This document shows, one piece after another, positions 539-6,443 of a stretch of 38,949 nucleotides of DNA. The notes beneath the pieces are model-generated. The model was not told where the DNA came from and made no database searches. It was given only the letters and a program-made list of their open reading frames with translations. This DNA is from a virus, in UHGV virus genome UHGV-0097970; one strand, 5' to 3'. Position 1 is the first letter of the stretch. Every line of letters starts with the position of its first letter. A program made the translations under genes and the position numbers.

Positions 539-838
539 CTACGATGCAAGAATCCATACCAATAAGCATCCGATAATTGGGAAAGAAAAATCCAACAAAC
601 TTCCCACATCCCACACGCGTGGATCAAAACCTCCCCACCACGGCATGTTGACACGTTTCCCTTTCCCAAACTTTTCTATCCAGCGATATTCTGCCTGGGT
701 GTGTTCACGCGCAATGAAGAACGTACAACCGGCTATCGCACCGTAAGCCCAGTTTCCGGTAAAAATACCAACCAGTACCTGAGCCGCAAAAGCGCAAAGC
801 GAGTGAAGAAATGGAGTGACATCAATGCTCTTAATCAT
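539..838 (-). CDS. Small predicted membrane protein, hypothetical; possible moron
   Basis: 99-aa ORF with hydrophobic segments ([44 protein letters not shown]); its ATG overlaps the tailspike stop (ATGA at 835-838), implying co-transcription; sits between tailspike and attL. Confidence 0.5.
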
Positions 839-2892
839 GAAACTTCCCCGTTGGTTGAAAATATGGCTCCTCCAACTCCAAGTGTATTTCGTGTTGTGCT
901 CAACCTAAGAGGGCTGGAGTCAGAATTAGAATATCCTGTAGCAGAAATAAAAGATCCTCCACTAATAGTCAACTGCGGAACATCGGCTATATCTGAATAA
1001 GTTCTGTCAGCAACAGTATTATTTATAGCCACATATGATCCAAAAAAACTTCTTATTGTTTGGTTTTTAACTTTACTTCCTTCAATGGTTATCCTACTAC
1101 CACAGTCGGCAATAAATCCTGAATCTGCATCCAGCGTTGCATTCATAAAAGAAGCTTCAGATCTCTCTACATCAATCCATCTAATATCTTTTGTGGGATT
1201 TGCACCAAATACATGACAAATATTAGAGTTAAACCTTACACCATCTTGGAGGTGCATTAATTTTTTTATATCTGTACCCCATAGCCTTGGAAAATTAACA
1301 GATGCTCCTGCATGGCAATCAAATCCCAGCTCAGCCCCTGAGATATCTACAGCCTTTCCTGAAATAACAGCACCAGTGTCTGCATTAACGGCTGTTCCAC
1401 AATTGCGCATATCATTACCAGCAACATCAACACAACCCGCACCATCAATACGCACACCAAGTGCACATCCATAAAAACCTTTTTCAATATTTGGTTCAAG
1501 GACTTTACCACTTGTTTCTGCATCACTTTCTTCAACGTCATGTCGTCTTGCATCAACATATGCTGTATGAATGCAGGTTAATCCACGATATGAGCAATGT
1601 ATAGTTTTATGGTCGCGTATATTAACATTTGAACCATCTCTTACATTCCATCCTATATAACAATAGCTTGCACTTGACCCCTGAAAATCTGCTTTAACAT
1701 TATAAATACAATTAACTGACGCAACCGTACTCTCTGTGCACCGTTCAAACTTGCTTACAGGCATTGATGCCTTGACATTATTTACCAGTTGCAGGGAAGA
1801 GTATCTGCTATAAGAAAAATCACATACGTAATACCCTTCTGGCATATATGCAGCAACACTTTCCTCATCAGGAGCACATCCGGTATGATATGCACTAATT
1901 TTTGCACCAAAGCTACCATGAATTCCAACGTAGAACTTTCGAGCACCTGAATACGGATAGAAATTAAGTTCAGCTTTTTGAGTTACAATAAATGCACAAA
2001 CATCGCTATCATCTCTATTTTCTTCAATCTGAATAGCAAATACAGGACTTTTTGCTGCATCGCAAATGTAAAATAAATATTTGTATTCGTAATACGTCCT
2101 AACAGTTTTAGTAAACAAACTGGTATCAGAGAAAACCACTGAGTCTTCTGATATTATTTTAATCCATGATAAGTCACATCCTGCTGAAATTTCTATTTGC
2201 TCATTGAGCACAAAACCGGAAAGAATTTTAATTATGCAAAAATCAATGCCATTTTTCCATAGTGGACGCAGTGCAACAGCTGAGTTTAGAGCATCACTAA
2301 TAGATTTAAAATTACCATATTCCCCAACTGTTATTGTGAATGCATACCTGGAATTAAATACTGCGGCACTCTCTCCAGAGTTAATAGCTGCAGATATCAT
2401 GTCATAATTTGATATAAAATCATTTGGCGTGATTATTTCTGCGTTTTTATTGTGCTGTGTTCTAAGTTTTGAATTTACATGAACACTTTTAACTGCAATA
2501 CGGGAGTCGTCAACAAGTATTTCATTACCCTCTGTTGCTAACTCTTGTCTTAACTGATCCGGGTCATACTTCAGCACATTCGGAAAATAGAACTGCTGTG
2601 CACCATACGCATCATAAACAGCCATAGAATGGCCTTGCACAGTTACGAACTTGGCAATCTGTCCGTTATATACCGGGTAACCAGCAGTGTTAATGATGAT
2701 TGGTTGAGAAACAGGAACGTGAGAGCCGTCTTCGTTCTCCACATAAACCTGAATCTGGTTTTCAGGATTTACCGGGTCAGTGTCAATTTTACCGATATAA
2801 ATTTTGCCATTAGCTACGGCTTTAAAAGAACGCGCCATAGTGAAGAGTTGCGAAGGCATTGATACGATCACATTGGCTGTAATGTCTGTCAT
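835..2892 (-). CDS. Tailspike protein with P22 gp9-type N-terminal head-binding domain and divergent receptor-binding domain
   Basis: N-terminal ~110 aa ([13 protein letters not shown]...KYDPDQ) closely matches the P22 tailspike head-binding domain from memory; remaining ~570 aa are unrelated to P22 gp9 and AT-rich. Confidence 0.9.
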
Positions 2893-5098: not shown

Positions 5099-5740
5099 AT
5101 GAATTTTGACGATCAATTCCCATCAAGAGTATCTCTGGCAAGACAGTCCAGGGGTATGACGCAGGCGCAGTTGTCAAAATTAGCTGGTGTTGTTCAACGT
5201 CAAATAGCTGCATACGAGGGTGGTGAGGCTAAACCACGGCTTCGGGTATTGCAGGCATTAGCCAACGCATTAGGTACTACGGCTGAGTGGTTAGCTCTAG
5301 GTGAAGGTCAGGGTCCGGGAACAAAAAACGTCATGCCTGACGTTCTGGTAAAGCAAATACCAATCCTCAAACTAGATGAAGTTATGCATTACCTAAACAC
5401 AGGTGAACATTCATCGTCTAGATTTCATCCGGCAATATACAATGTTGGTGACTCTGCATTTGCATTGACTATTGAAGGTGAAGCTATGACTACAAGTTCA
5501 GGTATTAGCTTTCCCAGAGGATCAGTTGTCACGTTCAGCCCTCTAGTAAAAGCTAAAAGCAAAGATTATGTAATAGCATCATTGGATAAAGAGCAAATAT
5601 TGAGCTTCAAGCAGGTTTACATTGGTGAAATAGAGACAAACTTAGTATCCCTAAACCCAATGTATCCTAATATTCTTGTTAGAAATGAAGATGTTAGTAT
5701 TTTGGCAACCGCAGTTTACCTTGAAATCCCGTTGCTTTGA
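5099..5740 (+). CDS. CI/LexA-family repressor (HTH_XRE + S24 fold) with Ala at the nucleophile position
   Basis: N-terminal HTH (GMTQAQLSKLAGVVQRQIAAYEGGEAKP); C-terminal region aligns by eye to lambda CI S24 domain (DSAFALTIEGEAM vs DSAFWLEVEGNSM; LVSLNPMYPNI vs LQPLNPQYPMI); the GxSM serine is Ala. Confidence 0.8.
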   Translation: MNFDDQFPSRVSLARQSRGMTQAQLSKLAGVVQRQIAAYEGGEAKPRLRVLQALANALGTTAEWLALGEGQGPGTKNVMPDVLVKQIPILKLDEVMHYLNTGEHSSSRFHPAIYNVGDSAFALTIEGEAMTTSSGISFPRGSVVTFSPLVKAKSKDYVIASLDKEQILSFKQVYIGEIETNLVSLNPMYPNILVRNEDVSILATAVYLEIPLL

Positions 5741-5804
5741 TATCCTTTAGGAAGCGACACATTATCATCCGGTGTTCTGCTCAAAACTAAGGAGTGGCTA
5801 CTCA

Positions 5805-6443
5805 ATGAAAAAAATAGATATATATAGCGATACATCAGCCTATGTCATAGGCTCATTGGGTTTTTTAATTTTTTTTGTTTGGCAGTACCAGTCACTATCT
5901 CCAGGATGGCGATTTTTGGGGATGTCTTTGATATCACTTGGTGCAGGAATAGCAACGCAGGTGTTGATGTATCTCTTTAATGGATGGATCTCAAAAAGAG
6001 TTGAGAAAAAAAGAGCTACTTCAATATGTAGAAGCCTAGCTATTCCAGAAGACTCTACAGATCAGGATGATATTGCAAAATGTTGGCGGTATATGATTGC
6101 AAGATACTCAAATGAGTTACTGGCAAACAGACTGTCCGACTTAATCGGGATCGTAGTTACCTCTGTTGGAACAATCATCAGTATAGGGATATCAATTTGG
6201 TATGTCGGGATGATTGTCTATTTTGTTTGGAATAGAGACTTCAATGAACCTTCCATTCTTTTTATACCTTTATTTTTCAGGGTATTAGCATTCATATGTG
6301 AGTTATTGCTCTCTTTTTTCTGCAATGTTTTGTTCAACAGATACCCAGGTGAAGCAAGAAAGTTTAATAAAAACTATGATGAGTTAAGGAGAACAGATCC
6401 TTTTCTATCAAGCAAAGAGTTCCGCGATTCCATTCGCAATTAA
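5805..6443 (+). CDS. Multi-pass inner-membrane protein, hypothetical (SieA position)
   Basis: Four or more hydrophobic helices; very AT-rich relative to neighbours; TAAGGAG RBS before ATG at 5805 (track ORF starts 5772); lies between gp16 and immI module like P22 sieA; no sequence similarity recognised. Confidence 0.6.
   Translation: MKKIDIYSDTSAYVIGSLGFLIFFVWQYQSLSPGWRFLGMSLISLGAGIATQVLMYLFNGWISKRVEKKRATSICRSLAIPEDSTDQDDIAKCWRYMIARYSNELLANRLSDLIGIVVTSVGTIISIGISIWYVGMIVYFVWNRDFNEPSILFIPLFFRVLAFICELLLSFFCNVLFNRYPGEARKFNKNYDELRRTDPFLSSKEFRDSIRN

Follow-up and report, generated by a model that had tools for sequence, protein, structure and literature searches.

P22, Sf6, HK620, and CUS-3 are short-tailed phages that generally cut through a glycan layer on the host. 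The tailspikes of the first three are O-antigen endoglycosidases, whereas that of CUS-3, a P22-like prophage of Escherichia coli RS218, is a K1-capsule endosialidase and thus a precedent for a P22-like phage acting on a group-2 capsule and not on O-antigen. A more distant receptor-binding protein, gp15 of the Staphylococcus epidermidis phage Andhra, forms a trimeric 19-layer β-helix related to alginate lyases, and in picoviruses the type of receptor-binding protein is reported to follow the type of wall teichoic acid of the host (PMC9710869). The tailspike analyzed here shares its anchor with the first group and, at a much greater distance, its β-helix with the second.

Genome context and modular architecture of the tailspike

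The window, i.e. the whole stretch of 38,949 nucleotides analyzed (UHGV-0097970), is a complete P22-like (Lederbergvirus-type) genome of a temperate coliphage related to CUS-3 and HK620. Its first 25 kb align with JEP4, CUS-3, HK620, and relatives at ~95–96% identity over 42–69% of the length. An integrase, an Arc-like regulator, a Bro-N/P22_AR_C antirepressor, and an S24 repressor are encoded, the last three in an immI-like region between the tailspike and ejection-protein genes. At positions 5099–6443 (+) lie a repressor of 213 amino acids with HTH and S24-peptidase domains and, after it, an AT-rich ORF of 223 amino acids, by appearance a multi-pass membrane protein, at a place where the JEP4 annotation shows no gene. 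This ORF, possibly a moron or exclusion gene, gave no Pfam or PADLOC match. For JEP4 itself (MT740315), a Myoviridae morphology with a contractile tail of ~103 nm has been published (PMC8425383); its 39-kb genome is that of a P22-like podovirus with a head-binding tailspike, and the micrograph and the sequenced phage may not correspond.

The coordinates of the tailspike gene and of its parts are collected in Table 1. A GGAG motif lies 9 nt upstream of the start codon, and the product is a full-length match to phrog_5662 ("tail fiber protein," E 0). An identical protein is present at NCBI (P0001) under the name "bifunctional tail protein," and full-length near-identical genes were found only in phages HZ41 (98.8% DNA identity) and JEP4 (97.3%, "tail spike protein"), whose proteins are uncharacterized. 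The case that the initial annotation named as refuting it, close full-length identity to a characterized tailspike of known specificity, thus did not arise. The head-binding part covers the whole Pfam model PF09008 Head_binding (positions 1–113 of 113, E 1.4e-66), and matches to PDB sequences were confined to the N terminus: P22 gp9 (residues 1–116), Sf6 gp14 (residues 1–160), the head-binding domain 1lkt, and the CUS-3-type head-binding domain. This homology indicates that the tailspike is mounted on the tail by its head-binding domain. The ~570 residues past the head-binding domain gave no Pfam or PDB sequence match beyond the neck, and no curated β-helix or CAZy-type family model matched the module (Pfam: none past residue 113). 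PF13229 Beta_helix was reached by remote relatives only, mostly under the cut-off, and the only matches of a family profile were to the necks of the Sf6 and CBA120 tailspikes.

Table 1. Positions in the window of the tailspike gene, its parts, the adjoining gene, and the exchange boundaries
Feature	Position	Strand	Basis or remark
Predicted membrane protein, 99 amino acids	539–838	-	ATG overlaps the tailspike stop codon (ATGA)
Tailspike gene	835–2892	-	Uninterrupted ORF, 685 amino acids, ATG start, TGA stop
P22-type head-binding (tail-attachment) domain, residues 1–113	2554–2892	-	PF09008, PDB sequence matches
Linker and helical neck/cap with RTQHNKNAE motif, residues 114–182	2347–2553	-	Sf6 gp14 alignment to residue 160, AlphaFold model
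Right-handed β-helix receptor-binding module, AT-rich, residues 183–685	838–2346	-	
Candidate active or anion-binding site, residues 418–449	1546–1641	-	Invariant R418–D419, R426, H442, R449
Exchange boundary 1, where similarity to P22-like tailspike genes stops	2538–2554		Gene nt 339–355, megablast ends
Interval with two further exchange boundaries	2199–2464		

GC content is 43.7% in the head-binding part (GC3 44%) and 37.2% in the codons for residues 114–685 (GC3 22%), against 47.1% for the window; the receptor-binding part is the lowest-GC 1.7-kb stretch of the window, and no other is as low. Megablast alignments with 27 other P22-like phages break off at the first boundary of Table 1, whereas the downstream part recurs at 98–99% DNA identity behind three other N-terminal anchors, in phages 92CQ and HEMP4 and in a second prophage type. 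Identity with 92CQ (99.4% DNA) begins at gene nt 429 (window 2464), and identity with the 118UI-type prophage and HEMP4 (98%) at gene nt 686–694 (window 2199–2207). The 130-kb phage 92CQ carries the module in a "tail fiber protein" encoded among baseplate and other fiber genes; the second prophage type carries it in a protein of 729 amino acids and also encodes a GH19 endolysin. Because the module stands behind such varied anchors at high DNA identity, horizontal swapping with at least three exchange boundaries is well supported. These results bear out the initial annotation in its description of a modular tailspike, with a P22-type head-binding domain joined to an unrelated, AT-rich, and horizontally exchanged receptor-binding part.

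A search of 5.8 billion proteins returned only 24 homologue clusters, at 36–100% identity, with P22 head-binding, PF18668, PF12571, or PF03906 domains as anchors. Two homologues, P0014 and P0018, have an extra SGNH/GDSL esterase domain C-terminal to the β-helix, which suggests that some family members also deacylate their substrate, perhaps an O-acylated one. The membrane protein gene adjoining the tailspike was considered as a partner traveling with the module. It belongs to phrog_1443, has no Pfam match, and is identical in JEP4 and HZ41; proteins ~77% identical to it lie downstream of tail-fiber genes in many lambdoid phages, and an unrelated gene occupies its position in 92CQ. It was therefore rejected as a co-traveler, being a common lambdoid gene that stands beside unrelated tail fibers.

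Fold and invariant residues of the receptor-binding module

Structure prediction of the C-terminal part, which the initial annotation had proposed as a check, gave a parallel β-helix. The AlphaFold2 monomer model of residues 115–685, built from a 24-sequence alignment, has a pLDDT of 92.9 and a pTM of 0.88, and consists of a short helical neck (helices at residues 146–152 and 162–175) followed by an all-β helix whose first strand is at residue 186. In a Foldseek search, Andhra gp15 (PDB 8egr) was matched with an E value of 9e-14 and the next protein with 8e-5; in predicted viral structures, a Bacillus phage protein and one of 609 amino acids, as long as Andhra gp15, were among the best hits. 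A profile of 47 family members matched gp15 residues 67–215 (domain E 6e-17, no composition bias), and hhalign of the module family against gp15 gave an E value of 1.8e-4. Because of these two profile results, the resemblance is judged to be distant homology, beyond likeness of fold alone. A trimer is expected for the tailspike by analogy with the head-binding domain and with Andhra gp15.

Six residues (Gln-232, Arg-418, Asp-419, Arg-426, His-442, and Arg-449) are conserved in all of 46 homologues, 23 of them close and 23 remote, and Asp-240, Asp-250, and Cys-476 are conserved at ≥91% in the same alignment. Most of the other residues that are invariant among close homologues vary in the remote set. 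Arg-418 and His-442 are 24 residues apart and Arg-426 and Arg-449 are 23 apart, which is one helix turn, so that the members of each pair should stack on adjacent rungs. The cluster of Arg-418, Asp-419, Arg-426, His-442, and Arg-449 is a candidate site for binding, and perhaps cleavage, of an anionic polymer, and its composition, rich in Arg and with His and Asp, suits an anionic substrate. Any bond cut there could be a phosphodiester or a glycosidic one. The invariant residues could instead be structural.

O clusters and capsule loci of strains carrying the module

The initial annotation had also held that the module determines host O-antigen specificity, and this part did not stand. As the phage is temperate, lysogens carrying the module could be typed by the O cluster in their RefSeq annotation (n = 5), and the five fell into five different and unrelated clusters: O7 (PCP07083), O5 (FORC_082), O17/O44/O73/O77/O106 (CB7286), O11 (MS 198-1), and O15 (118UI). 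PCP07083 and CB7286 encode the identical tailspike protein (WP_447311267.1) in O7 and O17-group backgrounds. The module was present in only 1 of 35 O5 genomes, and searches with the O7 and O5 wzy genes showed no enrichment with the module. Insertion sequences stand at the head of the O cluster in two of the lysogens: in FORC_082 an IS1 separates galF from rfbB (L007:37763–38460), and in MS 198-1 an IS4 lies inside galF (L012:779–3110). O-antigen expression may be altered in these strains. Of 67 poultry isolates, 32 were infected by JEP4, the phage with the 97% identical tailspike, and the infected ones belong mostly to phylogroups A and D (PMC8425383); so broad a range does not fit a single O type. 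A literature search on JEP4, HZ41, HEMP4, 92CQ, and VEc3 found no receptor data. An O-antigen-specific endoglycosidase that sets host range by O serotype, as in P22, Sf6, and HK620, is thus very unlikely: the spread of O clusters led us to reject it, and the tailspike shared between O7 and O17-group strains, its rarity among O5 genomes, and the elements in or next to galF all speak against it. An activity different from that of the P22 endorhamnosidase, which the initial annotation also raised, is plausible.

Among 5426 complete E. coli genomes, 16 contain the module, 7 of them behind the P22 anchor and 9 behind another anchor. Strains of clonal group A with O11, O15, or O17 share the K52 capsule, and for this reason the group-2 kps locus of 118UI was examined. 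It lies at the end of the pheV island, and its serotype-specific genes include those for a TagF-like protein of 1248 amino acids (PF04464, E 6e-41) and a galactosyltransferase-like GT2. The TagF-like gene matched only 49 of the 5426 genomes. These 49 include 15 of the 16 strains with the module: 10 have the 118UI-type locus at ≥98.9% identity and 5 have a diverged relative, arranged in PCP07083 as kpsMT-GT-TagF-like-acyltransferase-kpsSCUDEF. A reciprocal search with the K116-type genes returned the same 49 genomes, of which 40 are K52-like (including the 10 carriers) and 9 are K116-like (including the 5). MS 198-1 is a further K52 strain and FORC_082 a further K116 strain. The supplements of PMC13171606 do not contain these genome accessions, and K types were therefore assigned by comparing gene order, protein lengths, and identities with the published tables, not with the authors' typing tool. 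Gene order and lengths in 118UI (829/1248/330 amino acids) and PCP07083 (262/1249 amino acids) fit the published K52 and K116 reference loci, and pairwise identities between the two loci were 71/47/63%, against 68.5/48.4/63.1% published for the references.

The hypergeometric probability of this co-occurrence is 3e-31, or 3.5e-27 with duplicate strains collapsed, both values ignoring shared ancestry; carriers make up only 15 of the 49 K52/K116 genomes. The single carrier of the 16 with no K52 or K116 match by megablast is EC332 (NZ_AP039429.1), whose kps region was not located by coordinate walking. EC332 holds two copies of the module. Because the prophage and the kps locus are >600 kb apart, linkage cannot explain the pattern. 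Small as well as large genomes are represented among the carriers, whose sources are seawater, humans, poultry, and pigs. They differ in K locus (two), O type (at least five), prophage backbone (two), and integration site (at least three), and the module was acquired independently among them. Each of the two tailspike variants is found with K52 and with K116, a pattern that suggests a property common to the two capsules. The sole common feature found among the carriers is the pair of a glycosyltransferase and a TagF-like polymerase, the PF04464 domain being encoded in both K loci. A conserved glycan (enterobacterial common antigen, LPS core, or colanic acid) was also considered as receptor, as a way to explain the diversity of O types, and was dropped, since the rare K52 and K116 loci account for 15 of the 16 carriers.

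The K52 repeat unit reportedly, in literature from 1985, contains galactose, fructose, phosphate, and an O-acyl group. K52 is listed among the E. coli capsules with phosphodiester bridges (PMC5566550), and TagF-like polymerases build teichoic-acid-like capsule polymers (PMC5974469). Both points fit the kinship of the module with a type of receptor-binding protein that tracks the teichoic acid of its host. The K-specific capsule genes have a GC content of 28–31% (118UI K52, L017:9962–21867; PCP07083 K116, L018:16734–22374), against 50% in kpsFEDUCS. Low-GC imports are thus found on both sides, as the genes for the capsule polymerase and as the phage module that is predicted to act on what these genes make.

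Proposed role of the module and comparison with described systems

Our preferred reading, to which we give a probability of roughly 0.6, is that the target of the module is the pair of group-2 capsules K52 and K116 of E. coli, phosphate-containing and teichoic-acid-like polymers that it would recognize and probably cleave. As in P22 and Sf6, the head-binding domain would anchor trimers of the tailspike in the tail hub, and the β-helix would serve as a mobile receptor-binding module that binds the K52/K116 polymer and probably depolymerizes it. The invariant Arg/Asp/Arg/His/Arg cluster, on two adjacent rungs, would bind the anionic polymer and catalyze its cleavage. Depolymerization would then open a path for the short tail to the outer membrane of encapsulated strains of any O type. 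More tentatively, and with the odds against it, the tailspike may be the first representative of a family of depolymerases that cut phosphodiester-linked, teichoic-acid-like capsules of Gram-negative bacteria, with an Arg/His/Asp site unlike the known glycosidase and lyase sites of tailspikes and with an ancestry shared with the receptor-binding proteins of Gram-positive picoviruses. If so, a single lineage of receptor-binding proteins has tracked teichoic-acid-type polymers from one side of the Gram divide to the other.

The association with K52 and K116 could also be a by-product of lineage or ecology, the receptor being another structure that co-varies with these lineages or a conserved glycan or protein. 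The association statistics take no account of ancestry. K52 clusters in CC69 (PMC13171598), one clonal complex may include several of the K52 carriers, EC332 is an exception, and the host range of JEP4 tracks phylogroups A and D. Set against these points, the spread of the carriers over K loci, O types, sources, prophage backbones, and several integration sites, with the glycosyltransferase and TagF-like polymerase pair as the only feature found in common, makes this explanation improbable. It is likewise unlikely that the module is an adhesin for K52 and K116 and nothing more, a pertactin-like β-helix devoid of depolymerase activity that leaves penetration of the capsule to other factors. Even in distant homologues, whose target glycans presumably differ, five charged residues do not vary, which suggests chemistry over recognition, and short-tailed virions of the P22 type must generally cut through a glycan layer.

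Capsule recognition with probable cleavage, if correct, would have practical consequences. K52 was recently ranked first among E. coli capsule types by estimated invasive potential and dominates the multidrug-resistant CC69 lineage (PMC13171598), and K116 was one of the types with the strongest links to invasive disease (PMC13171606). K52 is absent from a list of the E. coli K specificities of known phage depolymerases (PMC12488582), and our literature search found no E. coli K52 depolymerase and no phage enzyme described for K52 or K116. The tailspike and its homologues would then be a ready-made binder or depolymerase of K52 and K116 for typing, decapsulation, and phage engineering, and would provide a first starting point for studying how teichoic-acid-like capsules are handled by phages. 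For annotation, the case cautions against reading O-antigen specificity from the presence of a P22-type head-binding domain.

Compared with described systems, the tailspike is akin in its anchor to P22 gp9, Sf6 gp14, and HK620 gp9. It shares with them the PF09008 head-binding domain (88–96% DNA identity to the coliphage and Shigella-phage versions), a place in the genome behind the genes for ejection proteins and the immI-like region with Arc and antirepressor, the neck motif, and a right-handed β-helix body. Past residue ~160, however, no sequence similarity between these tailspikes and the module is detectable, and the module, unlike the O-antigen endoglycosidases, does not track O type. CUS-3 matches 62% of the first 25 kb of the window at 96.5% identity and its head-binding domain at 93.9%, but its receptor-binding part is unrelated in sequence and its target is polysialic acid, in contrast to the K52 and K116 polymers predicted here.

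Andhra gp15 has a homologous β-helix at only 15–18% identity and serves a phage of a Gram-positive host. It is anchored on the portal and stem by an N-terminal loop and coiled coil (PMC9710869), whereas here the anchor is a P22 head-binding domain; the central invariant R-D-R-H-R segment of the module did not align with gp15 in the profile search, and gp15 has no demonstrated enzymatic activity. The match to phi29 gp12, a teichoic-acid-degrading pre-neck appendage with a β-helix, is much weaker than that to gp15, and the autocleaving C-terminal chaperone domain of gp12 is absent from the tailspike. PHROGs attaches neither a function nor a receptor to phrog_5662. Within this family and the 24 homologue clusters, the β-helix is shared at 36–89% identity; the anchors are of several kinds, and an SGNH esterase follows at the C terminus in two members. 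A P22 anchor joined to an exchangeable β-helix is textbook knowledge, P22-like phages that target capsules were known already, and near-identical proteins are present in databases. What is new is the kinship of this family with Andhra-type proteins, the invariant site, and the predicted specificity for K52 and K116.
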